From the NCBI GenBank assembly GCA_032718475.1, contig JAUCBJ010006769.1:1-64000 (forward strand): a stretch of 64,000 nt of DNA, given 5' to 3'. Positions 1 through 53,666 of the stretch are shown one piece after another (the stretch's first letter is position 1; every line of letters begins with the position of its first letter). The translations under genes and the position numbers were made by a program. The notes beneath the pieces were generated by a model that saw only the letters and a list, made by a program, of their open reading frames with translations, searched no databases and was not told the origin of the DNA. The DNA is from Nemertoderma westbladi (taxonomy: Eukaryota > Animalia > Xenacoelomorpha).

Positions 1-920
1 AACATTAGTTCATTAGTGAATATAATGAATAAGAACACCATTGGAATCAGTCAATGAAGATAATTTTATTCCTTCGCTCGGGGAACTAATTGAGTTTCTA
101 TTAGAACTCCAAACCTCTATGGATGTTTGTGTTCCCATGATAGCTAAGCGGCATCCTGATGACATCATATCGTTACTATCATGGGGTTTCGTACATCGTC
201 GGCGGCCAGCGATCCCACGCCGGGCAGCCATGGCACCACCATGGGTGGGTCAGTAACGGTTGGATGTTGCGCGACACAAACGGAATAACGTGGATCTCGA
301 TTTTCATCATTCCTCCCAGATGGAGTCGAGGAGTCTGTGCGATGAGGATGCAACCTATCGATCCCAAGAACAGTGTGGCCACTGCAACTGGCAATCACAA
401 AGTTAGTACTCATTGTTTTCAAGTTCAACTGACATTGATTGCTTTGCAAGGTAATGCAATCAACTTCCAATCAATGGCCAATGACGTCTCTTCACCCAAG
501 TGACCAGATCAGATATATCGAGAATCACCTGTTTCCGAGTCCAGTTCCTGGAGACGCGAAGTGGCAATGGAAGAAATTATTACGAGTGAAGTTAAGGGGC
601 ACTCATTAGAAGATCAAACTAAAGGTTGGCGAATAAGGGACGAATAATTCTCATCATGTGATATTGTGGTTAGACTAAATATTATTACTGCATCGGCCAC
701 ATGGATAGGAGTTTGTGTCTCCGGGTGGCACGTATGGTACAGCAGCAGTGATTTGGCATTGCAATGCCAAAGAGTAGTATGAACAACCCTAGAAGGCTGT
801 GGTGCCGAATGGCGATTCGAGATTTTAGATTAACTACATTTTCGTGTTCGGAAGTCAAGATAACAAGACGGGATTCAGCCATCACGATAATATTTGAGTT
901 TACATTGATGAATATGCCGT

Positions 921-3900
921 CTAGTTTGAATTAACTTTCTTCAATTTATGTTTCGAGTGTTTCTGTTTCTTTAGATAATAAGTGCCGAAAAGTAGTGATT
1001 CAATTAGACGTTTTTGTAAATTATTAGATATAAAATCTTTAAGATCGCTTACAGCTCTTTCTGTAAATTCAAAATAATGAAAATCAGAATTGTCGAGAAG
1101 AACTTGGAAGGAGTCGGTTACCTTTTCATCAATTAAAGTATATCCATGTATTTTCGAAATGACTTCCGGTAAAACATCCCATGCTTGATGGATGTACGGT
1201 TCTGTACCACCAATCATTCGCCAAATGTTTGATAACCCATTAAATGTTTTATAATGGCAATGATCTGGTATTGATTTAGAGAATAATTCTACCATATCTT
1301 TTTGGATAAATCTCTGGTAAACATGATGTTGGTGAATGTTCCGGCACAGAAAGAGAACAAATTTTGTTTCTTCAAATGCGAAAAGTTCGGATTTTTCACA
1401 AGACATTGAATGTTGAAGGAAGCCATCTGGAAATGTTTTGCGCCAAGCTTCCAATCGTTGATCCAAAGGCGCTGATTGAGATAAATTTACAGCAGAAGTT
1501 GATAAGTCATCAACAAATTGGTTATATGGAGAATTAACCAGAAAAAAACGTTCGATTGCAGTCTTAGCATTTGGTCTCCATTTCATTGCTGTAACTATGG
1601 TGAACTTCGGACCTGGACTGAGAACTATTATGCGTATTACACCAAGCATGAAAAGTGTTTGCCGTTTTGTAATTTCAACAATATGCGCTGAATCTGTACA
1701 ATGTTCACTACGAAAATAAGGTCTATATAATCCGTGTATCATGGCATCACCATAATCATCTGCCTTTGATAAATCCGTATCTTTAAATAAAGTAATTACT
1801 TCTTTTGATACAGTTATCTCTTGACTATATTGTAATGTTCGTCCCGTTAATAATGACCGTGCAAGAACTGCTGTTTGCTTCTTTCTTTGTATTATGTCTT
1901 GCCTTCTTGCTGCTTCCTGTTCATCAACACCTTCAAAAGTATCATGATATGTCGGTCGTCGCACATATAAGGAAATTCCCAAATACTGGATAATTTTCGG
2001 TAAATAAACTAATGGACCTCTGGTAGCGTGTAGTAAAAATCCAGAACTATGGAATACTCTCAATGAGGAATCTTTAAGACTGAATAGTGATACATTTTCC
2101 AAATAGGTTCGCAAACCATCAACTAACCGCTTAGTCATCCAACGCAAACTTGCATGGTCGGGAAACTGCTCTACTGCTATTGAGAGTTCATTGCATATTG
2201 GCAAGAATGGATTATCGGTGGACTTGTTGTCAAGAAGTATTCCAGAAAGTGAAGGATGAGATTGTAATAACACCTCAATCAGTGTAGACTCTGAAGTAAA
2301 TTTATCAACATGTTCTGAAAGCTTATATTTTACACAGTAGACCAACATTGGAGCCTTTCGTTGTTCACAATGCCATACAGCTATTGCCATATTTACGACA
2401 CCAGGATCAATACCAATGGAACGGATTGTGTAGGAACTACTACCAGGACTAATTGCGTTAGTAGACCTAACATAAATTCCAAACCTTTCAATAATATTAT
2501 CAATTCCAAACGTTACAATGAACTTATCACTATTAACTGATAAAACAGATTCCTCAGCACGACGTTTAATGTCCATTTTAGAATTACTCAACTTCAAAAA
2601 TGTCTCCAGAGAGAATGGCTCCGCAAAGAGGTTACGGCAGCTATCGGCACGAGTAAATGCTACCTGAACAAGTTGGCTCAACAGTGATATGTTTGTTTGT
2701 ACTAATTTATCTGCATTTAGATTAACATAAACTGGTTTCTCACGGTATTCTTTTCCTTGGCATTTGTGTACTGTGATTGCGTGAAGTGGCACAAAGGGGA
2801 ACTGCGTTCGACTTATTCTTTCTGCAAATCGCCGTCTCTTTTTACCTGTGAGTCTTGCAGATATTGGGAATATTCGGACAAATGTAGGATTTAAAGGAAA
2901 CTCGCAATCAGATATACCCTCCTCATTGAAATCTGGAATGTCAACAATGACATGGTCTGGTTGGGGATGTTCACCATTCAACACAGCAGCAGCATCACTT
3001 TCATTAAAAACGATGTGTATCACAGTTCCTTGGGTACCATTGGCTATGCGCCTTTGGACACTGACATTATCAACAAATATAATTTTCAGGCCAACATATA
3101 ATGGAATACAGTCCTCCAACATTACATCAAATTCTGATGGGCTCAATCTATTTAGATTGGTAAAAGTTGCATTATATATCGACTTGGAAATGAATAATGT
3201 TTGATCAAGTGAACAAATCTGATCAACTGATAATTTGGCATTATTAAGCATTCTCGTAACATTGTCATACATTATACAAACTGGAAGCTCCCCCAGCGTC
3301 GCCATGCTTGGTGTGTTACCAAGTTCATTTATTGAATGAAAAACCGTCCTGTAGTCTATTTCATCTTGCTCCCCATTCCTAATACGACTGGTTAGTTTAG
3401 CTAGCTCATCATCAGACCTGTAAACTTTCCTTAAGCAGATAACATTCGGACGCATATGAGAGGCATATAATTGATGACCATATAACGAATGAGCTTTACC
3501 TTGACGATTTCTAAGCCGAATTCTAGCACCAGGGGAAACAACTTCAGATTGCGAGGGTGCATTCCACAGTTGGCGTGATGAAACAGGTGGGAGTTGTCCC
3601 ATATCTCCTACCAGTAGAAGCTTTTTGCCGCCCCACAGAATGTCTGGATTACCACTGGCATGGCGTAATGATGAGTCCAACAACGCTAATGTTCCTGGTT
3701 GGCACATAGAAATTTCATCTACTATGACAAAATCAACACTTTGAACATATTTCACAATGAGAGTTTGACGTGAAGTTACCTTGTCGGTATTCTGATCCCA
3801 TTGAGTCTTGTTGTTATACAAGCCAAAAAAACCTTCAAGTGTTGCGCAATACAAATTTGCAGCAGCAGCTCCACTGATACCTAATAACAAGACCTTTTCA

Positions 3901-6380
3901 CCAAGATGATAATAAATTCTCTTTATTACTTCGGTTTTACCAGAACCACCAGGTCCATGTAAAAATATTGTCTGAGGTGTAGGCTTGTTATTGATAGTGT
4001 CATTAATCATCAAATTGACAACAAGTTGTTGAGTATCATCCAATTTAGGCAAATCATTGAAATTTATGGGAATCTTAGGTCCACCTTTAAATGTCTTTGA
4101 TGATTTACAAAGCAATTTCCACTTTTGTTGAATTTGGGAATACAAGGGGGATTGCAAATTAATTGTTAAAAACGAATCTGCATTTCTGTCATCTAGTTCT
4201 TCTATGGCAGAACTCAAAATTCGATATGGATCCATATATGCATCAAAATCAAATGCATCACTAAGTATACAATCAATAGAAAGTGATTCTACATTTAAAT
4301 CAATCAAAGGTTCGTCTACAATATCAATAGTTTCTCCAGTTCCATCTGGCTCTTCTATGGGAATACAATTTAACTCGGATCTTATTTTGTACATTGCCTT
4401 TTTATGATCCATTTCACACCCATATGTATTTTGAAAGACACGAAATCGAAAACAAGGGTCATCAAATGTTCCATTTATACTCCTGTGGTGAAGTAATTCC
4501 ATCCATTTATTATGAAATGCCTTATAAATTAGAATTATATCTTTCTCACCATTTGATATTTGTTGTTGCAAATTCTCTGATATAATGTAATCACTAACAT
4601 TACCAGAAAATGGGATAAATGCGATACATTCTAATCTGACATTTTGTAGCAAATTCTTAAAATGGTTATCAATGGTGTTCCACGTGATACTATCGTCAAA
4701 TAACAGGGATTCAGGACGTCCGGTGATTAAATGTGGAATGAAATGTGGGATTCTGGTATCTTTAATTCCTTTATACGTAAATTTAGATTGCTCAGTGTGA
4801 GGCTTGAAATCCACCAGCGACAGAAATTCGAAATACGTAATTTTATCAGAAGGGATGAGACCACCTGGCCAATCATCTGAACACCGTTTGACATATGCTG
4901 TCACTGACGATTTCGGAGGCAATATAAACAATTTTTTTACCTGAAAGTTTGTAATTTCATTCGTATCAGCTTGTTCAACATTCACTATAGGTTCATCTTC
5001 TTCATTAGTTGCTACATCTTCAGATGGATTGTTCACTGATGGAGTTATTTGGCATAAAATAGGTGCACCACTAGAACACTTTAATGGGACAATACGTGGC
5101 ATGCATTTAATGACATCACTCAAGCCAAGGGCATGAAACATCAACTCCCATCTCGACATATCTTTCGGATTGAAAACATGGGCAATAGTTAGTCTCTTAA
5201 CCACACTTTGGATAGAAATATCTGGTTCACTTTCTACAACCTCCATTAATTTTACTACAGCATCATCAACACAAGAAAGCATACTTGTGCATTTGGAGAC
5301 ATATTTGAGGGTATAACGTAGCAATGCAAATGGACAACTTATAACAGTGAGATCACTATTTGCACGCCAATACAGCTGTAGAATTCTATTAACATTATTA
5401 AGGCGAGTAAATGATTTGTGTCGACGTTTTGTCAACACATGACATTCTGTAAATAACATTGACTCTGTTGTCTTTGCAAATCCAACTCTTGTAATATCTC
5501 TTCTAGGCTTAATACCGCCATGTCGACAACCATCCCCTTTTACATTTCCACCACATGTCTCAGGATAGCAATTATGCATTTGCACTATTGCGGCAAGCAA
5601 TGCACTCTCCTTGTTTTCTGAATTGCAGTGTTCTAAAGTATTAACTGTATCTCTCATCAGGGGATGATTTTGAGGAGTATACTTTGTGTCATCAGGAAGT
5701 TCATTCCAATCTTTCAGCAGTTTATATAAATCGATCAAATCTCCATTATCATCACAAAAATCAGTTTGAATCAGGCTATCATACACTTCCGTCATGTATC
5801 TTTCAGCAAGATAACCAGTATTAACAATATGTATTGCCTCACTCCTAAATTCTTCAGTCATTCTTCCTTGCAACCAATATTTTCTTACAGTTCGCATTCT
5901 TTGAATTAAATGAGCCAGCAGAATTAATTCGAATATGTGAGGTAACCTAGCAAGAAAGTGCCAATGCTGTACAGCACGTGTTGGACCCCATTCTACTCTT
6001 CCCCAATGCCAACTGTCTCTTGAATTGATGCTGCAAACTTTTCTGAAGAATGCATTGGTCATAATCTCCATTTTTAAACGGAGGTATTGCTCTATAATTG
6101 CTGCGTGTTTATCAAGCAATTTATCCCAAACCTTTCGATTTATTTCAAACCAAGAGTGTTGAAATACAGCATCCAAGCCATATTCTGATAAAAATACCAG
6201 CCGCCTCACACCATAATCTGTTCGCAGATTATTATTGAATGTGATAAACACATTTGGAAACCCTGAGTTGGTACAAACAGAATATAACTCTTGCCTCATA
6301 TGTTTCCACCGTTGGGCGGAATGGGGATATCGTCTTAGATGGGCAATAAGCATCGGTGCAACAGTTTCAGGATTGCCCAT
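921..6380 (-). CDS. RepHel protein, main part: HUH Rep + PIF1 (SF1B) helicase + RuvC/A22-like nuclease domain
   Basis: Rep motifs VFITFN, VEWGPTRAVQHWHF (HUH), RYTLKYVSK (Y2). Helicase motifs GPGGSGKT, VDEISM, GDMGQLPPV, IANGTQG, TVHKCQG, VAFTRA. C-terminal SIGIDPGVVNMA...IAVEQ...RKK...KADDYGDA. Confidence 0.92.
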   Translation of the reverse strand: MGNPETVAPMLIAHLRRYPHSAQRWKHMRQELYSVCTNSGFPNVFITFNNNLRTDYGVRRLVFLSEYGLDAVFQHSWFEINRKVWDKLLDKHAAIIEQYLRLKMEIMTNAFFRKVCSINSRDSWHWGRVEWGPTRAVQHWHFLARLPHIFELILLAHLIQRMRTVRKYWLQGRMTEEFRSEAIHIVNTGYLAERYMTEVYDSLIQTDFCDDNGDLIDLYKLLKDWNELPDDTKYTPQNHPLMRDTVNTLEHCNSENKESALLAAIVQMHNCYPETCGGNVKGDGCRHGGIKPRRDITRVGFAKTTESMLFTECHVLTKRRHKSFTRLNNVNRILQLYWRANSDLTVISCPFALLRYTLKYVSKCTSMLSCVDDAVVKLMEVVESEPDISIQSVVKRLTIAHVFNPKDMSRWELMFHALGLSDVIKCMPRIVPLKCSSGAPILCQITPSVNNPSEDVATNEEDEPIVNVEQADTNEITNFQVKKLFILPPKSSVTAYVKRCSDDWPGGLIPSDKITYFEFLSLVDFKPHTEQSKFTYKGIKDTRIPHFIPHLITGRPESLLFDDSITWNTIDNHFKNLLQNVRLECIAFIPFSGNVSDYIISENLQQQISNGEKDIILIYKAFHNKWMELLHHRSINGTFDDPCFRFRVFQNTYGCEMDHKKAMYKIRSELNCIPIEEPDGTGETIDIVDEPLIDLNVESLSIDCILSDAFDFDAYMDPYRILSSAIEELDDRNADSFLTINLQSPLYSQIQQKWKLLCKSSKTFKGGPKIPINFNDLPKLDDTQQLVVNLMINDTINNKPTPQTIFLHGPGGSGKTEVIKRIYYHLGEKVLLLGISGAAAANLYCATLEGFFGLYNNKTQWDQNTDKVTSRQTLIVKYVQSVDFVIVDEISMCQPGTLALLDSSLRHASGNPDILWGGKKLLLVGDMGQLPPVSSRQLWNAPSQSEVVSPGARIRLRNRQGKAHSLYGHQLYASHMRPNVICLRKVYRSDDELAKLTSRIRNGEQDEIDYRTVFHSINELGNTPSMATLGELPVCIMYDNVTRMLNNAKLSVDQICSLDQTLFISKSIYNATFTNLNRLSPSEFDVMLEDCIPLYVGLKIIFVDNVSVQRRIANGTQGTVIHIVFNESDAAAVLNGEHPQPDHVIVDIPDFNEEGISDCEFPLNPTFVRIFPISARLTGKKRRRFAERISRTQFPFVPLHAITVHKCQGKEYREKPVYVNLNADKLVQTNISLLSQLVQVAFTRADSCRNLFAEPFSLETFLKLSNSKMDIKRRAEESVLSVNSDKFIVTFGIDNIIERFGIYVRSTNAISPGSSSYTIRSIGIDPGVVNMAIAVWHCEQRKAPMLVYCVKYKLSEHVDKFTSESTLIEVLLQSHPSLSGILLDNKSTDNPFLPICNELSIAVEQFPDHASLRWMTKRLVDGLRTYLENVSLFSLKDSSLRVFHSSGFLLHATRGPLVYLPKIIQYLGISLYVRRPTYHDTFEGVDEQEAARRQDIIQRKKQTAVLARSLLTGRTLQYSQEITVSKEVITLFKDTDLSKADDYGDAMIHGLYRPYFRSEHCTDSAHIVEITKRQTLFMLGVIRIIVLSPGPKFTIVTAMKWRPNAKTAIERFFLVNSPYNQFVDDLSTSAVNLSQSAPLDQRLEAWRKTFPDGFLQHSMSCEKSELFAFEETKFVLFLCRNIHQHHVYQRFIQKDMVELFSKSIPDHCHYKTFNGLSNIWRMIGGTEPYIHQAWDVLPEVISKIHGYTLIDEKVTDSFQVLLDNSDFHYFEFTERAVSDLKDFISNNLQKRLIESLLFGTYYLKKQKHSKHKLKKVNSN

Positions 6381-6391
6381 TTTAAATTTAT

Positions 6392-7957
6392 CTAATAGTG
6401 TTTTGACATTAACTTCATCAAGTTCATTTTGTGTGTTGGATAAAACTGTATACTGTCCAAGGAATATGCTAAATGCATTTGGTCATAAGCAACAAAAGCA
6501 TAAACAGGATCTTCAGCATATGGCCATCTTAGCTTACCATCATTGCCAAATACTGCATATCGCAACTGGTGAGCTAGTGCTTGCTTGTGAACATTGATTC
6601 CAGCAAATTTCACATTTCCATCATCATCTTCCCTATACATAATACATGTTAATGAACGCTGGCCATCAGAATGTAAATCTGGAAATTGCTCCTCCAGTTT
6701 CCAATGAAAAGATGACAACTTTCCGTCCCACATATTCCTGAGATTTATCTTAATCGGGGAACCTACCAACTCACTCTCCATAGCCTGTCGGACACTCGTC
6801 TGCAAATAACCACCTAAACTTTCATTAAGTCGATACATGCTATGCTGTGAAGCGTCTGACTGGGCATACATATCATCTTGGACTGCTCTAACTGCTGCTG
6901 GGGCAACATCAATAGTATTCACGATGTCATCTGTACACTGAACACTCAGTGTTTCTAATAAATCATGATTAATGGTGAATATATCTTTGTATCCTTCTCT
7001 ATTGTTCAAGAGATGAGTTGTCCAGGATTTGACAACATCTGACCGCACTGGAAGTTTCCGAAAACTCGAGCCATCCATCCTTTCAGACATTATTAAAACA
7101 TCACATGAATGTTCGAGATGAGGTAAAACATGATTCAGTGTATTTCGAATTTTATGGCCAACAACTAAACAATGGCTTCCAAATACTTGTCTACGGTTAT
7201 AATTAAACATTATACTTGTAAATGCCTGTTGTTTTGCTATAAGGCAACGTTCAGCTGGTGTGCAAAGTGGAAGCTTCCCGACATTGGCTTGAAATGTTGC
7301 TGCTGGTTCAGTTGTACTTAGAGCAATATCCCTCACACTAGAAGTCTTCTTACTGCGTGCTCTCCTAGAATTAGCTTGGCACCGTTTACATTCTTTAAAT
7401 TTAGATGAGTCATAATTTAACTCTAGATATATTTCACAACAAGTTGTACAATGTTTTAATTTCCAACCAGTAGACCAGTCCTCAACAGCCTTTCTCATAA
7501 CGTATTGTACATATCGTGAATCTTGGGACCTTATTTTATCAACTTCCTTTTGCTCAGCATCATTCAAAAATTTAGTATGATCTCTGGGCCGCTGATCCCA
7601 AGGCCATAATGGAATTTGCATTTGGTTTGATTGTTGCTGTGCCTCAGGAAGAATAACATCCTCAAAAACGCCACATTCATTTTCATTCGGATCCACATTC
7701 TGAAGTTGAATATTTATTATTTCATCGTCTCGAGGTATTCCCCAATTGTTTAGAGAATTCTTTAATTTATTAACTTCACCCTCCAGTTTGCAGAAAAATT
7801 GGCACTTTTCTGAAAATTTCATTCTATCAGTCCAGGACGCAGGAGAAGGAATTAAGGAGGAACCAGCTATATTTTTCTTCTTCACTTTATCGGATACACT
7901 ACAATCAGATATAGAAGCGGACGCACTGGAGATGCCATCCTTTTGACATTGCACCAA
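6392..7957 (-). CDS. RepHel N-terminal region (Zn ribbon + DUF6570-like), frameshifted from the Rep ORF
   Basis: CTTC..CKRC, LPLCTPAERCLIAK, VRSDVVKSWTTHLLNNREGYKDI, EEQFPDLHSDG and YAEDPVYAFVAYD match motifs typical of the region preceding Rep in Helitron2/Helentron proteins. Confidence 0.8.
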   Translation of the reverse strand: MVQCQKDGISSASASISDCSVSDKVKKKNIAGSSLIPSPASWTDRMKFSEKCQFFCKLEGEVNKLKNSLNNWGIPRDDEIINIQLQNVDPNENECGVFEDVILPEAQQQSNQMQIPLWPWDQRPRDHTKFLNDAEQKEVDKIRSQDSRYVQYVMRKAVEDWSTGWKLKHCTTCCEIYLELNYDSSKFKECKRCQANSRRARSKKTSSVRDIALSTTEPAATFQANVGKLPLCTPAERCLIAKQQAFTSIMFNYNRRQVFGSHCLVVGHKIRNTLNHVLPHLEHSCDVLIMSERMDGSSFRKLPVRSDVVKSWTTHLLNNREGYKDIFTINHDLLETLSVQCTDDIVNTIDVAPAAVRAVQDDMYAQSDASQHSMYRLNESLGGYLQTSVRQAMESELVGSPIKINLRNMWDGKLSSFHWKLEEQFPDLHSDGQRSLTCIMYREDDDGNVKFAGINVHKQALAHQLRYAVFGNDGKLRWPYAEDPVYAFVAYDQMHLAYSLDSIQFYPTHKMNLMKLMSKHY

Positions 7958-7972
7958 TGGAGATGCGTTCGG

Positions 7973-9184
7973 TTATCTGAAACGTACACGTGCATAGTAA
8001 GCTTTAATTCGTTCAGCTGATCTCACCACAGGATCTAACCGCTTCTTACGCATAGATTCCCGGTTGGCTAAACGAACAGCAGGATCTAATCGTTTCGTAC
8101 GTTTTGATAATCGTTCAGCCGATCTAACTTCAGGATCTAACCGCTTTGTACGTTTTGATAATCGTTCAGCCGATCTAACTTCAGGATCTAACCGTTTCGT
8201 ACGTTTTGATAATCGTTCAGCCGATCTAACTTCAGGATCTAACCGTTTTGTATGTTTTGATAATCGTTCAGCCGATCTAACTTCAGGATCTAACCGTTTC
8301 GTATGTTTTGATAATCGTTCAGCCAATCTAACTTCAGGATCCAACCGTTGCGTACGTTTTGATAATCGTTCAGAAGATCTAACTTCAGCATCTAACCGTT
8401 TCTTCCGCATAGATTCCCGGTTGGCTAAACGAACAGCAGGATCTAATCGTTTCGTACGTTTTGATAATCGTTCAGCCGATCTAACTTCAGGATCTAACCG
8501 CTTTGTACGTTTTGATAATCGTTCAGCCGATCTAACTTCAGGATCTAACCGTTTTGTATGTTTTGATAATCGTTCAGCCGATCTAACTTCAGGATCTAAC
8601 CGTTTCGTATGTTTTGATAATCGTTCAGCCGATCTAACTTCAGGATCTAACCGTTTCGTATGTTTTGATAATCGTTCAGCCAATCTAACTTCAGGATCCA
8701 ACCGTTGCGTACGTTTTGATAATCGTTCAGAAGATCTAACTTCAGGATCTAACCGTTTCTTCCGCATAGATTCCCGGTTGGCTAAACGAACAGCAGGATC
8801 TAATCGTTTCGTACGTTTTGATAATCGTTCAGCCGATCTAACTTCAGGATCTAACCGCTTTGTACGTTTTGATAATCGTTCAGCCGATCTAACTTCAGGA
8901 TCTAACCGCTTTGTACGTTTTGATAATCGTTCAGCCGATCTAACTTCAGGATCTAACCGCTTTGTACGTTTTGATAATCGTTCAGCCGATCTAACTTCAG
9001 GATCTAACCGTTTCGTACTTTTTGATAAACGCTCAGTAGATTTCACAGCAGGATCGAATCGCCTTTTTTGCATTTTCTCACGAGCTTCAATACGTAAGGA
9101 ATGAATTTTGCATAACTTGGAGCGCACTTGATGGGTTTTAAGTCCACGTCCCGAATTAAACGGCCGTTGGCAAGTATCACACAT
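7973..9184 (-). CDS. RepHel extreme N-terminus: C2H2-like zinc finger plus basic 17-aa helical repeats
   Basis: CDTCQRPFNSGRGLKTH followed by about 20 RLDPEVRSAERLSKRTK units. A TTTTGTTTTAG acceptor-like site at ~9189 suggests an upstream exon. Confidence 0.7.
   Translation of the reverse strand: MCDTCQRPFNSGRGLKTHQVRSKLCKIHSLRIEAREKMQKRRFDPAVKSTERLSKSTKRLDPEVRSAERLSKRTKRLDPEVRSAERLSKRTKRLDPEVRSAERLSKRTKRLDPEVRSAERLSKRTKRLDPAVRLANRESMRKKRLDPEVRSSERLSKRTQRLDPEVRLAERLSKHTKRLDPEVRSAERLSKHTKRLDPEVRSAERLSKHTKRLDPEVRSAERLSKRTKRLDPEVRSAERLSKRTKRLDPAVRLANRESMRKKRLDAEVRSSERLSKRTQRLDPEVRLAERLSKHTKRLDPEVRSAERLSKHTKRLDPEVRSAERLSKRTKRLDPEVRSAERLSKRTKRLDPEVRSAERLSKRTKRLDPAVRLANRESMRKKRLDPVVRSAERIKAYYARVRFR
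8005..9065. repeat. Coding 51-bp tandem repeat with 357-bp (7-unit) higher-order structure
   Basis: AGGATCTAA recurs every 51 bp; the variant unit TTGGCTAAACGAACAGC occurs at 8064, 8421 and 8778. Confidence 0.95.
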
Positions 9185-9644
9185 AAATCTAAAACAAAAT
9201 AAAAATAAATAATAATAGTATATGAATTATGAAGCAGTGATAGGTGACTGCAATTGAACTGTTACACCATGCCCTGGAATATAATGTCTTAATTAAATTC
9301 GATATAGATAGGACTCACTTCTTACTTATAAAATAATTAATCGCGCATTATTTAGGCCTATTACATTTTAATACAATTTACTACACCCTTAAGATTTATT
9401 ATAATTTATATATTTTATGCGATTTGTGCTTAATATAGTATGTATTATATGAACCTTGATGGTTTGAATAAAATAAAATAATAATAATAATTCAGTAGTT
9501 TGGTCCCCCCACCCAAAATAAAAATATTTCTACAAATCGTAATGAGATTGCATGAAATTTAAAACAGAGATAGTTACATCTCCGAGCTCCGACCACTTAC
9601 TGGGTGAGCCAGAATTTTTATTTTTGCTTTCATTCTTTAGCTAC

Positions 9645-9995
9645 AAGTGTTTAACATATAATAACAACTTAGCAGTAGAAATTGTTGTTCATTATTCTTG
9701 ATGTTGGCTTCTATTCCAATGATGTCATTTCCTGATTTGATTTCATTAATGTTGCTGAAGATACTTCTCCTGTAGAGTAAAGCAACACCACCCGCACTTC
9801 GACCGCCATTACCGAAAGCTTTCGTATACCCACCCAAAGTTGTTGTCTAGACTGTTGAAAAGATGTGATGCTTCGAGCTCATTGAGCCAGTGCTCTTGAA
9901 GTGCTACAACATCGTTTTCACCAAGAAGGTGCTGCACTTCATCGAAACTAGAGGCTAAGCCCATGCAATTAAATGTGGCAACACGAAGTTCCACA
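9645..9995 (-). pseudogene. Non-LTR retrotransposon AP-endonuclease N-terminal fragment
   Basis: LRVATFNCMGL...DVVALQEHWL, then a frameshift to GGRSAGGVALLYR...LLLSCY. Confidence 0.8.
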
Positions 9996-10769
9996 GTTTT
10001 ACTTATGTTTGAGGCCTGACCAACTAACCCTAACCAAAATAACAAACCAAATATCCCATAAAAGCCAAGACAGCAAGGTGTGGCCCACAATAGACTTCGT
10101 AGTGGCAGCTATGGCAGACAGTCAAGTTACAGTATAATACTACCAGTACGGTAGATGAAACTGTTAGTACCTGAAAGTGCATTGAACCAACTTCACAGAA
10201 ACATGAAGAAAGTAAAGTAACCAACCTTAGTGGTGAATCTTGTACAGCTTCCGCATCCATAGTAATAGTAGCTGGACTCTGGACAGTGGAGTACAGAAGA
10301 TGGACTTGTTTCTTCAGAATCTTGTATGACTTAAAGGTACCGGTACATCTTGAAATAAATATCCTTTGCTTTTATGTAATTCGCACATATCTAAATGTAA
10401 AAAATAAAGGAATATATAAACTCAGAGACTTTCACAATATACATGTCGGATGTCGCCGGTGGTACTTAAACTTGATTGATGGATACAGATAGAACTAAGC
10501 AACCTACTGCCCTTCACCCTACAGCCCAATGAAACATAAACTGATAATAAACATTTCAGAAGCACTGCAATTATATGGTACGGTAACCGATGAAGCTTCC
10601 TAAAAATTATATTGTATGCCATTTGATTTGATACCGGTAATAATAGTAAGTATAAAGGCATTTAGATTGAATGTTACATTTAAAAAAAGAAGCCGGAGGC
10701 GGAGGCCGGCCCCATTTTTATACAGGTAGCTGCTAGGTCATATAGGTAGAGGTGGGCGCTACTCATGTA

Positions 10770-10980
10770 TCCCAGTATCCCTAGTTTTGTTCTTCTCAGT
10801 ACCGTAATTCAACTGGTACTCATTTTCTCGACGCCATTGGATGAAAGGCTGAGTGGACCCTAGCATTGGCGGGGCTCGAACCTCGAACCTACATCCTACA
10901 ACCAGCAATAGATAGTGAGCCTGAAGCCTGGCACGCACAGTGGCACATGGCGCTCAACAACTGAGCTACCCCGCGCCCGC
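10770..10980 (-). mobile_element. tRNA-derived SINE with Nin/Deu-like core
   Basis: Minus strand: A box TAGCTCAGTTG, B box GGTTCGAGCCC, then GGGTCCACTCAGCCTTTCATCC...GAGAAAATGAGTACCAG, resembling the conserved Nin-domain core (recognised from memory). Confidence 0.65.
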
Positions 10981-12338
10981 CTTCAATAAAAAATCTACCA
11001 ATAAATATTAGGGCCTACATTTACTTAGGCCTAATGATTTCTTTTTTAATTTAATCTAATTAATCACCTTGGGCCTATTTATTTATTTTAAATTTTGGTT
11101 ACCGGTCCGGTACCTACCGGTAATCGAGTGTAATTATAAATAAATAAATTTAATGTACGGCGGAATAAATACATTGAAATATATTTATTACAGCAGTATT
11201 ATACAGTAGGCTACATTGTAGGCCTAGTTAAGAAAAAGAATATTGTCAAAGATATTCGCATTGTATGCATAAGTAGGATAGGCCAGGCCTATATCACAGT
11301 TAAAGTAAATAAAAAAAATAACTATGAAACAATATAATAATTAACAGTCCAATTCAACAAAAATAAGTGTACCAGTAACAACAATAAATCACAGTATAAC
11401 TCAATATGCTTCCAACTGCCCAATACATACCTCAACTTTCAAGCCAGCCCATCAAGAGGGGCATATTCCAGTAGCAGTCTTCAAATCCACATGTAGAAGA
11501 GAGTAGGCCAAGAACTATCTTAGAACAGTTACAATCAGATAACTATACCGCTACCGCGGTAGGAGTTATAGGATAACGCTCAACAGGATAAGCTAATAAG
11601 TTCAGAAGTTATAAGATGATAAATAATTATAAATGAGACAATAAAATATCACACAAATCACCAATCCAACTGCCCTATATATATACAGACACCGGCTCCT
11701 CTACCTCAAGCTAGGCCGTCCACCTTCCCCAATAAGGCACTGTGAATGGCTAATAATCTTACCACAGTATTAATGAGAGGCCGGTTTAACTAATGCAATT
11801 AATTGGCAGATTGGGTTTTAAACATAGAAATATCTCAACTGAACAACTAACACTAAAGACCACAACAACTGGACATGCTGGGAACACTACACTACACACC
11901 TTGATCACATGCTTATATAATAGCTTGTACGGACAGGCCGGTTTTCATTGGGGGGTCCATAGGGTGGAGACTGGTAGATTGGATTGGGATGTCAGATTGG
12001 AATGTGGTGTGGAATGTTAGGAATGTATATGAATCAGCAGTCCGGTAGAGGTTTACATATTTAAAAGAACTGCCGAAATATAAGTTATATGAGTATTATT
12101 TGTTATGATTTCTACCATTATATTCTTCCACGCAAAGTTCCTAGTCCTATAGGTCCAATCAAAACATTCTGTATATTGCCAATGGTTCAACGTAATCAAA
12201 GAGACGACGCTAGACACGCACGCAGCCAATCCCAGTGAAAAATGCACGCAAATAAGTAGTCATAAGTGATAATTCTAGAAAGGCTTTTCTGCGAATGTAG
12301 GCTATTGTGTAATTCATTTCAGTACCGGTCTGCCTAAC

Positions 12339-12566
12339 TGTCTGCACCAGGTGTCTGCACCAGGTGTCTGCACCAGGTGTCTGCACCAGGTGTCTGCACC
12401 AGGTGTCTGCACCAGGTGTCTGCACCAGGTGTCTGCACCAGGTGTCTGCACCAGGTGTCTGCACCAGGTGTCTGCACCAGGTGTCTGCACCAGGTGTCTG
12501 CACCAGGTGTCTGCACCAGTTGTCTGCACCAGGTGTCTGCACCAGGTGTCTGCACCAGGTGTCTGC
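12339..12566. repeat. 13-bp minisatellite (TGTCTGCACCAGG)n, about 17 copies
   Basis: Near-perfect tandem array read directly. Confidence 0.97.
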
Positions 12567-12689
12567 TTAACGTTTACACCCCAATTCCGCTTGGTTTATA
12601 TCTTGATTATCAATAAAATAGTAACGTGAAATATTTATGGAGCGTATATTTGAGAATGTTGAAATAATGCGTTTAGTAGTGTGACCAGC

Positions 12690-13370
12690 GTCTTGAATTT
12701 CCGCTTACCTCTAGCGGCAGACTGGAGAAATGCAGATCGACCACCTTCCTCAGAAAGACGCAGCATGTGCTCTAGTACATATGCCAATATTCACTTTAAA
12801 TAAATTAATATCAAGGAATTGGGGACAGTTATACATTTCGCCCTCTAGCGGCAGACTGGAGGACTCCAGACCGTTTACTGCCTACCAAAGACTCAGGCCG
12901 ACTTCTACTACATATCTGCTACGTTTCAGCTTGAACGGATCATAAATAACGAGATGGGAGAAAGATTTCACTTTCAAACATTTCGCCCTCTAGCGGCAGA
13001 CTGAAGAACTGCACACGGATTAGCCTTCAATTCAATTCAATTCCTTCTTTCAAAGTCACAGCTAATGGTCTAGTACATATCTGCCAAATTTCAGCATAAA
13101 TGGATTAAAAGCAAAGAAATGGGAGGACATTTAACGTTTAGACATGTGGCCCTCTAGCAGGAGACTATTGCTCTGATGGTGTCTGAAAGTCTCTCAAACG
13201 TCTCAACTTTAGCTCATATTGATACCTACAAATTTTCAACTTGGCAGCTTTAAATCCGACAAAGTTATTAGCATGTCAAAATCGTAACGACGACAACGAT
13301 TTCACTTTCAGACCTTTGGCCATCCAGTAAGCAACCGAGGGTGGACTCTCTATAGCCGAGGGGCACTTGT
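12690..13370 (+). mobile_element. Non-autonomous DNA element fragment (Helentron/DINE-like) with repeated CGCCCTCTAGCGGCAGACTG
   Basis: Internal subrepeats. 13050-13295 is a close copy of 32695-32940. Confidence 0.5.
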
Positions 13371-13468
13371 ATAATAACTAATAATCACGAACCCCATCCT
13401 CTTATAATATATAACTCTGTAGTAGTCAGTAGTAGTAGTAGTAATAGTAGTAGTAATAGTAGTAGTAG

Positions 13469-15569
13469 TGTTACGGTATATGGCGCTGTATCCATATTAT
13501 TAGTCATCATGCAGTATGCAATATTAGTCCGTTATACTGTACGTAATATTAGTCCGTTGTGCAGCATAATATTTTAGATAAGGCATAATGACGCAATGAT
13601 ATTTAGATAGGGAAATCGGAACGCCCATATATTTGCATCCATTTATTTTGTATAGTATGTAGCCCTACCTACGTAATTTTGTATTAGGTTATATGTAGAT
13701 AGTTCCAGGGTAAGTTTATTCGGACCCTGGATTCCGTGCTTGCTGATATTAGCTTTAGTAGGGCTAGCATATAGGGACGCCGTCCTGGCCATTCAGTAGC
13801 CAGAGACGTGAACCATTACCATATATGGTAATAATTTGAGCAATAGGGCTACAATCCGGCCTCCTTATTGGATTAACTGCTTCCAGGTTGGTCTAATGCT
13901 AGCATGGACTGGAGAGCCAATAGGAGAGCGATTGAGTCACCCTATTGCATCATCCCACCCGGATCACCTATAAATTGGCGGTGTGCCGGTAGAGCCTGTT
14001 ATCAATCTCTCACTCACATGACACATTCTCACTGCTGTTGAGCTGTCTCTAATTTTGTATTAGGATATCGTACTTTCTGCAATTTGCTAATTTGATTTTT
14101 TTCGTGAAATGATTTGCTAGTGCGATTACTTGCTTGTGTTTCTCAATAATTCCTTCGATTACTGCTAATTACAATTGAACTATGATTTCTACTCTTTGAT
14201 TAATGGTTCTATGTGATTCTTTTCTGCGCAATAATCCTAAGGGATTTCTGAGACTGTCAGACTTTGTGATTTGCATGCGCCGCTACGGTAGCTATTAGCA
14301 TAATGGAGGGCTAAGGTGCCAGTGGGCGATGGGCTCATCGGGGGGTTAGCGACGAAGGGAGTGCGGAGGATTCAAAAGCGGGCAACGCTGGCGGGGGTCA
14401 ACGTTGTGGTCGGGCAGTTTGGACTGTGGGTTGGAGACCGCTCGCCGGTACAGTAATTAGGGGGCTGATGATCCAAGGTTTTGTCTCTATTTAGTATTAG
14501 GGGGCAGGAATTGGGTTAGTTAGGAAGCCTAGATGTACCCGGGAGGGGCCTGCATACCTTACAGTAAGTAAGTAAGGGGGTAAGTACGTAAGTAAGTTGC
14601 GAATTATATAATTGCAGATTGTATAATTGCAAGTCGTGCTATTGTGATCCGTGATTGCTGACTCTGATTGATGTGTTACTAAAGTGTGCCTAAGATTACG
14701 AATGCTTAGATAGGCGCTCTTTTCCCTTTGATTGATTTCTATCTCTTAGTTTACTGTAAATAATTACTGATTAGGTCAAAGTAATACAGTATTTTAGGCT
14801 GTTACATATTTGTGACTGTAATTAATTAGTAAAATTAAGAATTAGTACGCAGCATAGCGGAGAGTAGCTAAGGTAATAATTAGAGTACCGTAAACTATTC
14901 ACGCTGAGCGGTTATTTGAATTAGCGGGCAATAAACTAGATCGCAATAGTTAGTACGCAAGACACTAGTAAGTTGCTGGCCTAAAGCCAGCTGCAGGCAA
15001 GTTTAGACCCAGAGCGGTAACACCTACGAAAGACATTGTACTGTATCATTTTGATTATTTTAAATATTCTCGCATTCACACATTCCGTTAGGGAACCCTC
15101 AGTATTCGCGATTAGAAAAGACGTAAGCATTGGCGTATTTCAGTAGTAAAATTAGGCGTAAGAATATACTCTGAGTGCAAAGCCCCTCGCACTCGTCTTA
15201 AGTAAGCTTAGGGAGCCGACTCGGGTTTATTGTTTTGGTTATTCCCGCGTGGCTCATAGATTCGAACAGTTAGCTCTCTATCGAGCGATCGGTAGAGAAA
15301 GGAACAAGCGATTTTGCAGGAGCTGTGTAAATTTAGTAAAATATATTAGCGGACGGCAGATTAGCGCCATCCAACGGTAAGTAGCGGTTTTGTATTTAGC
15401 AACCCTTACAATTTAGTAATAGCACACTCCTGATCCCCTTTACTTAACAGTAGAGCAGTCTTTGTGTCTTATTGGTTAGGCGAGAGCTCATTAGGTTGGC
15501 AGAGAGGTATACGGGTATTTGTCTGTTCAACAGTTCTGCTGTTAGTATAGGTGTCGCGGTTGTTTAACA
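13469..15569 (+). repeat. 5' LTR of element A
   Basis: Direct repeat of 27895-29995. Only two mismatches seen by eye (13644/28070 and 14329/28755). Confidence 0.98.
13860..14010 (+). promoter_or_regulatory. Putative LTR Pol II promoter (CCAAT boxes + TATA)
   Basis: ATTGG ~13867, AGCCAATAGG ~13915, CCTATAAA ~13967. The LTR of B has the same layout (CCAATAAG twice at 51083/51143, TATATAAAG ~51010, minus). Confidence 0.5.
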
Positions 15570-16812
15570 GTAAGGTATGTGTTATTGTCTGCTGTAGGCC
15601 TACCGCGTACAGTAGGACATAGAGTATATTCTTAGGCCGTGAAGATTTAGATTTACTGATACTTCGTAACAGTAAGGTATGTATTTTGTTTTTCTGTACT
15701 GCGTACAGTAAAGTAAGATTAAGATTACTGTATTAGGCACTGTACTGCGTACAGTAAGACATTAAGTATATTCTTTTAGGCTGATAGTTTAGATTACTGT
15801 ATTCACTGGCTGCGTACGATAGTACAGTAGTACATTAGGCTGATTGCTGTTACTGCGTACGGTAGAAGGACATTTGTTTGCCGTACCACACACACAGTAT
15901 CATTAGGCTGTTAGGTTGGTGTACTGTTTTACTTACTGTACTGCGTACAGTGGATGTACGATAGTGCGTTTTTGCTAATTGCGAATACAGCAGTTCCTTG
16001 GGCTTTAGGGCGAATTGTAATTAGTAAGTTTTTTGAAATTTTAGCTAGGTTTGCGAGAATTCAGTTTCGGTCAAAATTATTTTGTAAAATTCTAGAGTTT
16101 TGTACCGGTATGTTAGGTAACCGTTTAGTTATTTTATACCATCTGGAGATACATGGCAAGACGGAACTTCTGAGTTTGGGGTTCGTGTGGGTCTGCGGGT
16201 TCGGTTTGCAATCAGCGAAGGGACTGAATCTTTGGACGCGGACGTGGAATCTCACAGCAAACAAGGTTAGTTGTTCTGTTGGCACCACTGTGTTTGTGGA
16301 AGCAGTAAAAAATTACCGGTTGTTTAACTGCGAAGCTGAACTCAATTTATTAGTTAGGATATTTAGGTTTAGCCGGCCATGGTTTTTTGAATCGCTCAAG
16401 TTAGAGAGAGAGTTAGAGAGAGTCGCAACCCGAAGATGTAGCCACGCGCTAGTGGATACATATAATATTTGAAACTAAAATTACGTTGATTAGAGCTATA
16501 TATATATAAAATTAGAAATATTCAGGTGGCAAGTATATTTTGAATATTTTGTATTAGATTCAGAGTTATTTTGTGCTATACCGGTATTTAATATTATATA
16601 GTAGCTATATAATAATATTTTTGTTTAAATATTGTGCTAGTATTTGCTATAACTATATACCCCATTAAATTCACAATATTGCATTGCGAATTTATTTGAC
16701 ATTTGGACCAACTGATTATTTGACAAATAATTTGACCGTATTTCGGTTAAATTATAATTATATCTCGAACTTTTGCGAGATATTTTGCCGGAAGGCAAAC
16801 ATTATTTAGACT

Positions 16813-19800
16813 ATGAGTGTCTCAGACAAGGAGGCACTAGAGGACAGCTATGAGACGGCGGCTGGACCGCCGACTGACGATAGCGTAAACATTACTGTTG
16901 ATGACAATGCCGACTATGACGACGCAGCGAGCGACGCTGACGTAAGTGAACAGGAGGACGAGACAGTGACTAGTGAGGAAGAACAACAACCTCAAGTAAT
17001 AGTATTAGGATCCCCTACCGCTACTGTAAGAAAGGACTGCACAGCAGCCCGGACAGAGGTGAGTGATAGGGAGGGTAGTGTAGCAGAAGCGAGAGCCCGG
17101 AGCCCGGTTTCCAGACCTGTGGGTATGGTAAGTGCCGTGGTCCCAACGGCTGTTAGGAGTACCCGTAGTTCCCGAAATAATCCTTCAAGTCCACCGAGTG
17201 TGAGTCAGGTAAGCGAGAGAGAACTTGATATCGCGATAAAGAAGAAACTTCGCGCGCACGCCGGACATATAACTCGGACGACGGACAAGGTAAGGAAGAT
17301 GTTAGCCGACTCAGCGAACATCGGACGGGAAGGGTTAGTAGAGATTAGAAGAGGATATAACTCAGCGTTATTCAAGCAGACGGAGGAGCTTGCAGTCCTA
17401 GCGAAGAAGGCAGTAGAGTCTCAGTCGAGCGACGTGGCGACGAGGATTTACGACAGGGTTTTAGCAGCCTTGTTGGAGCACCGCGAGTTATCGGAGCGAT
17501 TCCGACGAGTTAGGACGGAGAACTGGCTGCTATGGGCATCACAAACGCAGGCGACTCAGGTGAGTGACGCAGATTTAAGAGACTTAGTGGAGCGGGAAGA
17601 GATCCAAGATAAGGAAGAGCGCCGGTATCAAAGGGAAGTTACTAGCTGGCTGATGCAGAATGGAGTGGTGGTGCCGGGCCAGGTGCTACCGACGACGGAG
17701 AACATCCAACAGAGGACGTTGACTCCACCCGACGATGCATCCAGAGACAGCGGCGATTCCCAGGTTAGTCACGCGCGAGGGAAGGTTATATGTGCTAGAT
17801 CCCTTGTTTCTCACAACTCGGCGGAGGAGAGAAGACGCCGACTAGACGAACAGCAGGCGGAAGTTTTGCGTGCACAGGAAGCACGGAAGGAAGCCGAGCG
17901 GGAACGGGAGCGCACACGTAAGTTAGACGCAAAGTTGCGAGAGTTGGAAGAAAAAGGTAAGCGTGAGCAAGCGGAACGCGAACAGGAAGAACGCGAACTT
18001 CAACTTCAACGCGAACAGGAAGAACGCGAACTTCAACTCCAACGCGAACGCGAAGAACGCGAACTCCAACTCCAACGCGAACGCGAAGAACGTGAACTTC
18101 AACTTCAACGCGAACGCGAACGGGAAGCTAAGGAATGCGAGCAAAGAAGACGCGAACTCCAACTCGAACGCGAGCGCAAGGAGCGCGAACTTGAGCGCGA
18201 GAGGGAGCGACGGGCGTTGTATGAAGAGAAGGCGCGTGTGGAAGAAGAGGGCGCAGCGAGACGAGCGAGGGAAGAAGAAGAACGTAAACTGGCGCAGTTG
18301 GAAAGTGCGAGATTAAGTTTAGAGAGCGAAGAACGGACTAGGAAGGCGAACGAAATCGCCGAGAAGGGGATGCGAATGATCGAAGAATGTGGGGCGAGTG
18401 TAGGGACAGAGTTGCGAGAACTGTTCGCACTGCAGAAGGCCGAACAGGAAGCGAGAACTCCGACCATACGCGAGTCGACGACGACCAGAATTCCTATACC
18501 CGGTCCAGCTATTACGAGTACACGGATCGCTAAACCGTTCTCTACATATCGCACGCCGGTTGGTATTGGTGCTTCACCCATCGCTCAGGATCCACGTCAT
18601 CGGAACACCGCACCACTATACACCGAACGCGAGAACGAAGAGTTTAGAGAAACTCCGACGGGCCAAGTATTTGGCGAACCGAACCCGCGGGTTTGGATTA
18701 CGCAGACGGAGCGCCGACCCAGTTCGACGGAGAACTTCCGGGTTAAACCGGAAGAGGGATCATATGAGAGACAGCGGATTACTCAGATAGAGCCGACTAT
18801 ACAACAGAACCCTAGCCAGGAATTTATTACGAGGGATGAGTTAAGTGCTAGTTTAGCGCAAGCTATATCGCCACACATCCAACCTATAACGGACATGCTT
18901 AGCAACCTACGGTTAAAGGAAGCAGCCCAGGTAAGAAGTAATTCAAATCCTAGCAGGCCTGAGTTAGATAAAGTCCAGCCTAGTCAACGAGTACGCATAT
19001 CGGAGGAAACTATACCACATAGACCTCAGGTAAGGACGCCTGTCCCGAATATTCATAATCCCAATTTCGAAAATTCGGCCGAGAAATTTATTCAGGATGC
19101 TTGGGTCAGGGCCTCGGCGCGCAAACCATCGCGAGCGCTAAGGACTGACACCGAGTCAAGCGATGAAGAGGAAGACATGAGACGTCAGAAGTCCCGAAAC
19201 TATAAGGAAAGAAGGACCGACGCGGAGCAGGTAAGTTGGAACCACCGGGAAAGGACCAGACTTAACAACCCTGCGGAACTAAACCATTTGTTAACCCGGA
19301 ACGACGCAACCCTTAGAGACATAGGTAAGTTTGCTGCTAGGCAAGGACTGCCGACGCAACAACCCCAGAAGTTTATGGGTAACCATAAGCATTGGAGGAC
19401 CTTCAAAACCTATGTCGACGAGCAGCTAACCAACAGCACCTTTACTCCCAACGAGAAGTTCAACTATTTGCTTCAGATGCTCCATCGAGAACCTAGAGCC
19501 ATTGCTGATAACTTCGTCGGCAATGAGAGGGCATTTGAGCTAGCGATGAAGACACTTAGTGACATCTACGGGAATAAAACCAAGATGGCGCAGTCGATAG
19601 TAGAAGACTTGGGTAAGGGCGGAAGGATTACAACTCCGTTAGAGCTGTTGAACTTAGCGAACGCTATTTCGAACGCATTGGACATCTTGAGGACGGTAAA
19701 TCTACCTCATCATGGTGATCACGCCGAAGTTTTAAAGAGCGTAATAAGACGTCTAAACATGCGTTACCGACAGAAATGGCGCAAATTAGAGAATAAGTTG

Positions 19801-52229: not shown

Positions 52230-53666
52230 TTATCGCTTAGTAGATCGAGCCCTGCCGCGTCCTCGAAAACTGCGCACAGGTGACTTTGCTCGCGATATGG
52301 GACTAATGGGGCGAGTCACTGGTTTACTTGGGACGTTGAGAGACGGTGCGACTATTTCCTCACAAATTCGTCTATTTGGCATCCCAAAACCTCGACCAAT
52401 TCCTCGTGACCGATCAGTTGTGGCTACAGTCGGTAGAACGTCTGGGAACGCGTGAGAAGCGGACGACGCAGACCCAAGAGTAGCTTGCGCCCCCTGTTGA
52501 TCAGCTGGTGTATGTCCCGATCCTCCTACCGGTTCTCTTGGAAGTGATACCGTATCCCGAGTAACTCGAATAGTCGGCTCAACTCCCTTACGTTCTTCCA
52601 CATTAATAATTTTCTTCAATTGTTGGCCCACCTTCTGGACCCGTATGATCCTACCCTGCCCGTCCTCCCGAGGGTGACGTGCAGACGGCGCAACCGGAGT
52701 GGCTGGTATATTCGTCGCCTCTAGGACCTCTTCTTCCTCGAATACGCTCGCTCGTATACGTTTATGGTAAAACGCGGCTCGGTACGCCCATGCGACGGTT
52801 AACCAAGCTCCTTTATTCCGCTTTTCGGTTCGGAAACGATCAAATTCACCATACGTGATACGATTTACGACTTTCTGAAAATTCCACGTGTTCTTGTTAT
52901 CCGGGTGAATCTGTAACAGATACTCGCGCACCACTCGGAATCCGCTGTCGTGGGGCAAAATATCAACAACCTCGATAAGTTCGTCATATTGGGGCATAGC
53001 GGAGATATATCCTTCCGACATCATCGTCTGAGGATTTACCGCCCAAAATCCGAGATGCGCTCTCATCGGAAACCGTCTTCTCTGTGCCGATACATGTTCG
53101 TCGGCTAAATCTTCCCACTCATCAAATAACTTCCTCACGAGTTTTACAGATTCGTGTTCATAAGGTATGTCTCTCAGTTGGCATTCAGATGCTCGATGTC
53201 CCTTTATATTGCAGTAAGTACATTGAGCCATAAATCTCCAGCAAGTATAAAAGGTATGAGACCCTTGATCCCCACACCATCCACAGATTAGCTGAGTCGT
53301 AGTAATGTGCTTTCCACTGCACTTTGCCATATGATGTCCAGCGACGCCACATTTACTACACATCGTATTAGCAGGGTACCACACTCGTTCGTATATAAGA
53401 TCTCCAATCGGTCGAGCGCTTCCTCCCATACTATAATCGTAATCATCTGGGTCTATGGGTTGGTAGGTTTCTGAAGGTTGTATACAAACTATAGCATCTG
53501 TTGCTTCGAGTTGTCGAATCTCCGTCTGAGATTTCTTCGGGAGGTTCCTTTCTATCTCAAGAAGTTCCTCTAAAGGATCGTCGGCGATCGTAGTAGTTAC
53601 GTTGAATTCATCACCAAGGTGACCGATAGGCGCACGCGTCTGCCGTGATTCATCCGTAATCTCCAC
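52230..53666 (-). CDS. Accessory protein, C-terminal part: three CCHC-type knuckles and an RG-rich basic tail
   Basis: CSKCGVAGHHMAKC, CGWCGDQGSHTFYTC, CTYCNIKGHRASEC; RGRGRARS. Overlaps the upstream ORF, so probably one frameshifted gene. Confidence 0.75.
   Translation of the reverse strand: MEITDESRQTRAPIGHLGDEFNVTTTIADDPLEELLEIERNLPKKSQTEIRQLEATDAIVCIQPSETYQPIDPDDYDYSMGGSARPIGDLIYERVWYPANTMCSKCGVAGHHMAKCSGKHITTTQLICGWCGDQGSHTFYTCWRFMAQCTYCNIKGHRASECQLRDIPYEHESVKLVRKLFDEWEDLADEHVSAQRRRFPMRAHLGFWAVNPQTMMSEGYISAMPQYDELIEVVDILPHDSGFRVVREYLLQIHPDNKNTWNFQKVVNRITYGEFDRFRTEKRNKGAWLTVAWAYRAAFYHKRIRASVFEEEEVLEATNIPATPVAPSARHPREDGQGRIIRVQKVGQQLKKIINVEERKGVEPTIRVTRDTVSLPREPVGGSGHTPADQQGAQATLGSASSASHAFPDVLPTVATTDRSRGIGRGFGMPNRRICEEIVAPSLNVPSKPVTRPISPISRAKSPVRSFRGRGRARSTKR

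Follow-up and report, generated by a model that had tools for sequence, protein, structure and literature searches.

The 64,000-nucleotide stretch of DNA analyzed here (the window) carries a Helitron transposase whose helicase is followed, in the same open reading frame, by two predicted RuvC-like domains in tandem. We conclude that the element is an HLE2 Helitron variant, apparently undescribed, whose tail holds two predicted RuvC-like domains. The first domain (D1) retains a complete set of predicted catalytic acids and the second (D2) is predicted to be degenerate, so the tail looks like an active/inactive pseudo-dimer. We lean modestly toward a reading in which this HLE2-type transposase acts through its RuvC/A22-like tail as a single-chain pseudo-dimer, with one strand of branched DNA being cut by D1.

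Organization of the element

The Rep-PIF1-RuvC-RuvC frame (P0001) occupies positions 921-6482 of the minus strand, spans 1853 aa from stop to stop, and is free of introns. Its Helitron_like_N and HUH Rep domain (5292-6443, minus; PF14214, E 1.4e-7, aa14-177, plus motifs) includes an HUH-region motif, EWGPTRAVQHWH (5996-5958, minus), and a tyrosine motif, YTLKYVSK (5315-5292, minus), both intact by motif positions. A PIF1-like SF1B helicase follows (2613-4043, minus; PF05970, E 6e-17, aa814-970), with GPGGSGKT, IVDEISM, NGTQG, HKCQG, and VAFTRA likewise intact. An earlier note on this DNA had identified a Helitron RepHel, and the two profile matches agree with that identification, as do the HUH and YTLKY motifs: an HUH Rep with two tyrosines precedes a PIF1 helicase in one frame.

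Upstream, a minus-strand frame at 6392-7972 encodes the N-terminal part of RepHel, with two CxxC motifs and a DUF6570 domain (nt ~6977-7273; PF20209, E 1.6e-5, 25.8 bits against a cut-off of 24.3). DUF6570 was reported as an HLE2 marker by HELIANO (PMC11417382); here it lies upstream of Rep, and DUF6570, Helitron_like_N, HUH/Y2, and PIF1 stand in Helitron order. In the window copy, a one-base frameshift near 6438 splits the DUF6570 part from the main frame. Four runs of one organism (X1 to X4) carry the window stretch or part of it, and the contigs of X1, X2, and X3 have an extra A behind 6438 that is absent from the window copy, so the frameshift is specific to that copy or to its assembly. 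The X1-X3 version of the transposase would be ~2300 aa, with the DUF6570 part joined in frame. The next frame upstream (7973-9226, minus) encodes a weak C2H2 finger followed by a basic unit of 17 aa (51 bp) that is repeated ~18 times. It is in frame with the RepHel N-terminal frame and ends in a TAA that is unchanged in the runs, and the opposite strand is open as well (367 aa); judged by its position, it is probably part of the Helitron.

Single contigs of X1 and X2, which come from two studies, each span 1700-6050, from Rep to D1. These unbroken contigs rule out an assembly chimera, with the qualification that X1 or X2 may themselves be the source of the window sequence. Because contigs extend ~470 bases past the window start, the element's 3' end is probably outside the window; the contigs of all four runs stop 470-475 bases past that start, which may mark either where the element ends or a branch. 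The X4 contig matches only 1-1324, the 3' part, with zero differences. A search for terminal inverted repeats found no inverted match of at least 11 bases between 9230-12300 and 1-920. Two short open frames, at 144-503 (plus, 119 aa) and 165-470 (minus, 101 aa), overlap downstream of the transposase and have no Pfam match.

Assignment as a strict Helentron was rejected because neither P0001 nor the tail matched Exo_endo_phos. The sole AP-endonuclease fragment seen lies just upstream of the Helitron (9809-10108, minus; PF03372, E 8e-4) and probably belongs to a truncated LINE.

D1, a predicted RuvC-type nuclease domain

D1 covers aa ~1353-1590 (1713-2426, minus), and its motifs start ~75 residues after VAFTRA (aa1274-79), the last PIF1 motif. 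The motifs are SIGIDPGVVNMAIA (aa1355-68, nt 2420-2379), IAVEQ (aa1435-39, nt 2180-2166), QRKKQTAVLARSLL (aa1532-45, nt 1889-1848), and KADDYGDAMIHG (aa1573-84, nt 1766-1731). As the earlier note had it, they lie in frame behind the helicase; all four are on the minus strand within the single stop-free frame. The fowlpox resolvase acts as a homodimer on bulges, Y junctions, and Holliday junctions (HJs), all of which it cuts, and uses D7/E60/D132/D135 together with N12/R101/K129 (PMC6962361). By motif spacing from this enzyme, we assigned the predicted catalytic acids as D1359 (2406-2408), E1438 (2169-2171), D1576 (1755-1757), and D1579 (1746-1748), all minus, and the predicted accessory residues as N1364, R1533, and K1573. 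The four-sequence alignment shows no conserved counterpart of fowlpox Q62, the equivalent being off by one.

A phmmer search of 1.84 billion representative proteins returned 5 matches at E up to 0.001. Three are true homologues that keep the D1 motifs (P0002-P0004; E 7.5e-55, 9.7e-48, and 5.7e-25), with identities to the window of 110/230, 99/231, and 62/115 in D1 and 55/232, 66/239, and 54/191 in D2. The other two (P0005 and P0006; E 3e-4 and 6e-4) were dropped as spurious matches to repeat proteins. D1359 and E1438 are kept in 3/3 rows covering them and D1576 and D1579 in 4/4, bearing out the proposed D-E-D-D set across 43-54% identity. The ordered motif pattern, defined post hoc, occurred in 0/200,000 shuffles of D1. 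When 233 six-frame segments were scanned together with the 3 homologues, 236 targets in all, it hit 1 window frame and 2 homologues. The shuffles and the retention of the motifs in three homologues rule out a chance motif.

Fanzors, which are TnpB derived and RNA guided, have a split RuvC, a Zn finger, and a gene of their own. D1, in contrast, is in frame with RepHel, lacks CxxC in 4/4 sequences, and shows no TnpB/Cas12f Pfam match in P0001, the tail, or the homologues. A Fanzor identity was rejected on these grounds, in agreement with the absence of a TnpB/Fanzor Zn finger described earlier.

The domain escapes Pfam, and three remote-homology methods (ESM Atlas, profile-profile alignment, and an AlphaFold model) place D1 with RuvC-type nucleases. 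A Pfam search of the whole frame gave nothing meaningful in the final 509 aa; PF04848, PF09159, and PF02075 had no match in four tail sequences at E up to 10 (below the Pfam gathering cut-off), and Pfam, NCBIfam, and PDB sequence searches returned no RuvC-family match for the tail. PHROGs gave a weak RuvC-like match (E 0.016) for 1/4 members, HMMER comparison of tail set A1 with the NCLDV set was not significant (best E 0.012), and hhalign against E. coli RuvC alone was meaningless (probability 3%). In the ESM Atlas, ranks 1-3 for D1 were Pox_A22/Ydc2 clusters of Nucleocytoviricota (NCLDV) at 0.90, sharing 172-173/256 features, a level of 0.9 that 4-10/100 shuffled proteins also reach. For profile-profile comparison, an A22-like motif was matched against viral contigs, and the 120 matches were reduced to 53 distinct frames, of which the 24 full-length ones were aligned; PF04848/PF09159 was present in 6/6 tested. 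Global hhalign of D1 against this set gave E 2.6e-5 and a probability of 49%, a score matched by 0/60 column shuffles. The alignment brought D-x-G-x-x-N, E, RKK, and K-x-DD-x-x-D into register; for the last motif, which is the same in both, the agreement is partly circular, as the set was chosen on it.

An AF2 model of the tail from four sequences had a mean pLDDT of 49.8 and a pTM of 0.41, with residues 124-234 mostly <50. It is too weak to resolve how D1 and D2 pack together, and a single-sequence model (pLDDT 33.6) was unusable. VIA comparison of the four-sequence model aligned D1 with TEFM (Z 10.8, rmsd 4.1, 173 aligned), fowlpox resolvase (Z 10.6, rmsd 3.5, 146 aligned), RuvC (Z 9.9, rmsd 3.7, 141 aligned), and herpes terminase nuclease (Z 9.6), at 11-17% identity. 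A second, Foldseek-free VIA run was concordant; overall, D1 scored Z 9.4-10.8 against RuvC, TEFM, and the poxvirus resolvases. The best BFVD match of the D1 model was a pithovirus (NCLDV) resolvase (E 3e-5). Together these results predict a RuvC-type nuclease fold for D1, the A22/Ydc2-like assignment made in the earlier note. Its further suggestion of a large-DNA-virus donor agrees with the NCLDV best matches in the Atlas and BFVD and is tempered by the placement of TEFM, fowlpox resolvase, and RuvC within 1 Z of one another; a viral origin of the nuclease is plausible.

D2, a predicted degenerate second domain

The frame runs ~265 aa past the region that had been described as a single nuclease domain. 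D1 is that domain, and a predicted second RuvC-like fold, D2 (aa ~1613-1853; 924-1646, minus; predicted fold plus motif columns), had been overlooked. Residues 271-507 of the AF2 model repeat the order of three strands, helix, strand, helix, strand, and helices. D2 aligned by VIA with Ydc2 (1kcf) at Z 8.9 in both runs, over model residues 255/269-509 (rmsd 6.2 over 192 and rmsd 5.1 over 185 residues), and it is this half of the model, not D1, that gives the best alignment of Ydc2. A Cas9 chain also aligned with D2 (Z 7.7, rmsd 4.5, 172 aligned). Foldseek with the whole-length tail model matched ASKHA proteins, which contain two RNase H-like folds. D2 had no ESM Atlas match, and hhalign matched it neither to the A22-like set (E 0.046 in local mode and 0.96 in global mode) nor to D1 (E 0.32). 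We tentatively predict a degenerate RuvC/Ydc2-like fold for D2.

D2 carries S-P-G in place of D-P-G, has no acid after strand 4, and ends with K-R-x-x-E in place of D-D-x-x-D, so that three of the four predicted catalytic acids are lost. S-P-G is invariant (4/4), R/K-N closes strand 4, and K-R-x-x-E stands in the final helix of 3/3 sequences. The domain itself is kept in 3/3 homologues at 24-28% identity.

Homologues and copies

P0002-P0004 lie on contigs of 1.1-2.0 kb, and no record with a foreign D1 homologue showed helicase motifs. The start of P0002 aligns with the helix and linker behind the window helicase (E 8e-8 in a pairwise comparison to which the GIDPG motif contributes), which suggests that a helicase may lie upstream of this homologue. 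When the domain region was used in a word-indexed search of proteins, no relative of 1019-3243 aa came up. No full-length fusion was recovered from collections with few long eukaryotic contigs: the alignment query gave only P0002 and the RepHel region only P0009, and scans of viral and metagenome contigs, again with few long eukaryotic ones, gave no confirmed locus for the tail or for RepHel. P0009 (E 6.6e-4) is the sole full-length RepHel relative retrieved. It is a 2009-aa RepHel with a Josephin deubiquitinase (PF02099, E 1.6e-11) in the same C-terminal slot; its E-x-Q-x-R-G-x-x-H-x-H motif (EWQKRGYPHAH) is unlike EWGPTRAVQHWH, which may mark a distinct subclade.

Among the matching contigs, 15 main-frame differences were classed as 7 synonymous and 8 not, with 0 at the catalytic acids, a count that omits diverged or short-contig rows (3834-3851, 4314, and 6197-6228) and rows outside the main frame. 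In D1, 4/5 allelic differences are non-synonymous. The window copy looks slightly decayed, because aa1530 is I there and R in X2/X3 and in 3/3 homologues.

The 64-kb window contains one copy of the element, and the same organism has several diverged Rep/helicase relatives. The match of one diverged contig is confined to the SSGFLLHATRGP codons (2011-2051); on inspection by eye, its loose ends look like homologous flanking residues. By projection in X1, this contig, at depth 82.7, would end next to one that bears Rep, at depth 86.5 (~2890 and ~2937); the corresponding projection in X2 leaves a gap (2755 versus 3971). A second fused Rep-RuvC family in this organism is likely, its contigs being unbridged. 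As to whether the fusion is unique to this copy, no full-length fusion was recovered elsewhere from those collections, three distant homologues keep D1-D2, and a second family is likely; the signs of a helicase fusion outside the window's family are indirect.

Relation to known systems

Like the Helentrons (HLE2), the element combines Rep and PIF1 in one frame with the HLE2 marker DUF6570 (PMC11417382) and places a predicted nuclease directly behind the helicase. It differs in that the Helentron nuclease is an APE/Exo_endo_phos enzyme, whereas here a predicted RuvC/RNase H fold is present and doubled, and the Rep motif is EWGPTRAVQHWH. With Pox_A22/NCLDV resolvases (PF04848) and Ydc2/Cce1 (PF09159), D1 shares the predicted fold, D-x-G-x-x-N, E, R/K-K, K-x-D-D-x-x-D, and the accessory N, R, and K. 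Those resolvases are small homodimers, whereas D1 is ~240 aa with insertions, is fused to a transposase, is followed by the degenerate D2, and falls below the Pfam thresholds of both families at 11-17% structural identity. Mriyaviruses also combine an HUH endonuclease, a helicase, and a RuvC-like resolvase in a replicon proposed to be rolling circle, but as separate genes of a capsid-encoding virus with SF3/SF2 helicases rather than as one polypeptide of a transposon with PIF1 (PMC11253617). Fanzor1-carrying Helitron2 elements likewise hold a RuvC-fold nuclease inside a Helitron.

The earlier note knew of no such Helitron, and the full-text literature searched, a scope that leaves room for annotation in Repbase, subscription reviews, or supplements, contained no Helitron-resolvase fusion. 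In the text examined from PMC13085455, PMC3985635, PMC13565253, PMC5718144, PMC11934779, and bioRxiv 2023.06.13.544871, Helitrons are linked to no RuvC-fold proteins other than Fanzors. HELIANO screened with Pfam, and its main text and one supplementary file contain neither "resolvase" nor "RuvC" (PMC11417382). Because D1 lies below Pfam detection, Pfam-based Helitron surveys would miss such elements.

Proposed function and alternatives

RuvC-family enzymes need a second subunit, and we propose that D2 stands in for it, so that a monomeric RepHel would have everything needed to bind a branch and a single active site, in D1. The substrate would be a fork, flap, Y, or loop from the element's own peel-and-paste cycle. 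The likeliest cut site may be on the target strand, across from the copy coming in, where a cut would let insertion finish without awaiting host replication or repair. One live and one dead fold would suit the nicking of a fork, a flap, or the strand facing a looped-in copy better than the resolution of a four-way junction. To our knowledge, most Helitrons transpose without any such domain, which counts against this explanation, as do the low-confidence model, the sequence searches with no RuvC-family match, the missing Atlas and profile matches of D2, the off-by-one Q62 equivalent, and the non-synonymous differences in D1. Helraiser peels one strand, giving forks and displaced strands at donor and circle (PMC5876387), and the endonuclease behind the Helentron helicase has been hypothesized to nick (PMC4067079); PMC8788227 leaves the role of endonucleases captured by Helitrons undecided. 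The job of the tail is probably akin to that of the Helentron AP endonuclease, which has the same position.

The built-in resolvase of the earlier note survives as a predicted RuvC-like domain with complete acids, but the degenerate D2 favors a one-site pseudo-dimer over a two-site enzyme, making a branch nickase the more likely predicted activity. D1-D1 dimers between two transposases could nonetheless form a true two-cut HJ/concatemer resolvase for rolling-circle multimers or cruciform ends, with D2 only DNA binding or structural. We consider this unlikely but worth weighing, given the four intact acids, the true resolvases among the best structural matches, the tandem Helitron arrays and head-to-tail junctions reported (PMC5876387), and the HUH endonuclease and RuvC-like resolvase paired in separate mriyavirus genes (PMC11253617). 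Such an enzyme would have no need of a conserved degenerate second RuvC-like fold in one chain; moreover, the HUH domain itself closes unit-length circles (PMC5876387), and the Helraiser transposase is described as monomeric.

It is quite improbable that the tail is a branched-DNA/RNA binding module or a Fanzor-type RNA-guided nuclease rather than a structure-guided cutter. Non-catalytic TEFM and Spt6 and the RuvC domains of Cas9/IS110 do lie within ~2 Z of the resolvases, and Fanzors are present in Helitron2 elements (bioRxiv 2023.06.13.544871), but D1 keeps all its acids and the A22-like final motif, has no CxxC finger or TnpB/Cas12f match, and an Rfam search of 1-16000 had no match. We give even less weight to a domesticated host gene or endogenous virus-like part in which the fusion is a local accident, and consider this very unlikely. 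The absence of element ends or a target site in the search of 9230-12300 against 1-920, the single copy in the window, and the lack of a foreign homologue record with both helicase motifs and the domain would fit such a locus; the Helitron domain order of an intron-free main frame, the diverged Rep/helicase relatives in the same organism, the post-helicase linker common to P0002 and the window, and the lack of a capsid or packaging frame among the long window frames scanned speak for a mobile Helitron.

A broader form of the branch-nickase reading, which we hold tentatively and rate a little below an even chance, is that a resolvase of giant-virus type entered a small, undescribed Helitron lineage, was duplicated there, and lost one of its two active sites. 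A symmetric homodimer making two cuts would thereby have become a single-chain branch nickase wired to HUH/PIF1. Such a capture would mean that the problem of finishing rolling-circle insertion was solved twice independently, the other solution being the AP endonuclease of Helentrons. How insertion is completed from a single transferred Helitron strand, and what the Helentron endonuclease contributes, are still open questions, and a second, unrelated predicted nuclease at the Helentron endonuclease position suggests that the need for an additional cut recurs. At 510 aa, the tail is a small module that could be expressed, with catalytic residues defined by prediction, for testing this cut. A RuvC tandem that naturally pairs a live with a dead site, if real, would be built unusually for the family and might make a useful structure-specific nickase.

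Other features of the window

Two BEL/Pao-type LTR retrotransposon frame sets lie in opposite orientation, at 16810-25200 (plus) and 55211-63247 (minus). The former has an uninterrupted 2796-aa gag-pol, and the frames scanned in the latter gave no Peptidase_A17 match. The presence of BEL/Pao elements suggests that the host is an animal. Downstream of this second Pao-like element, at 52230-54664 (minus), are two overlapping frames, one of 495 aa and one of 355 aa, which are possibly accessory genes; apart from CCHC knuckles they gave no Pfam match. A short tandem array of the 13-bp unit GGTGTCTGCACCA occupies 12339-12566, and repeated CCCTCTAGCGGCAGA motifs occur near it, at 12708-13000.
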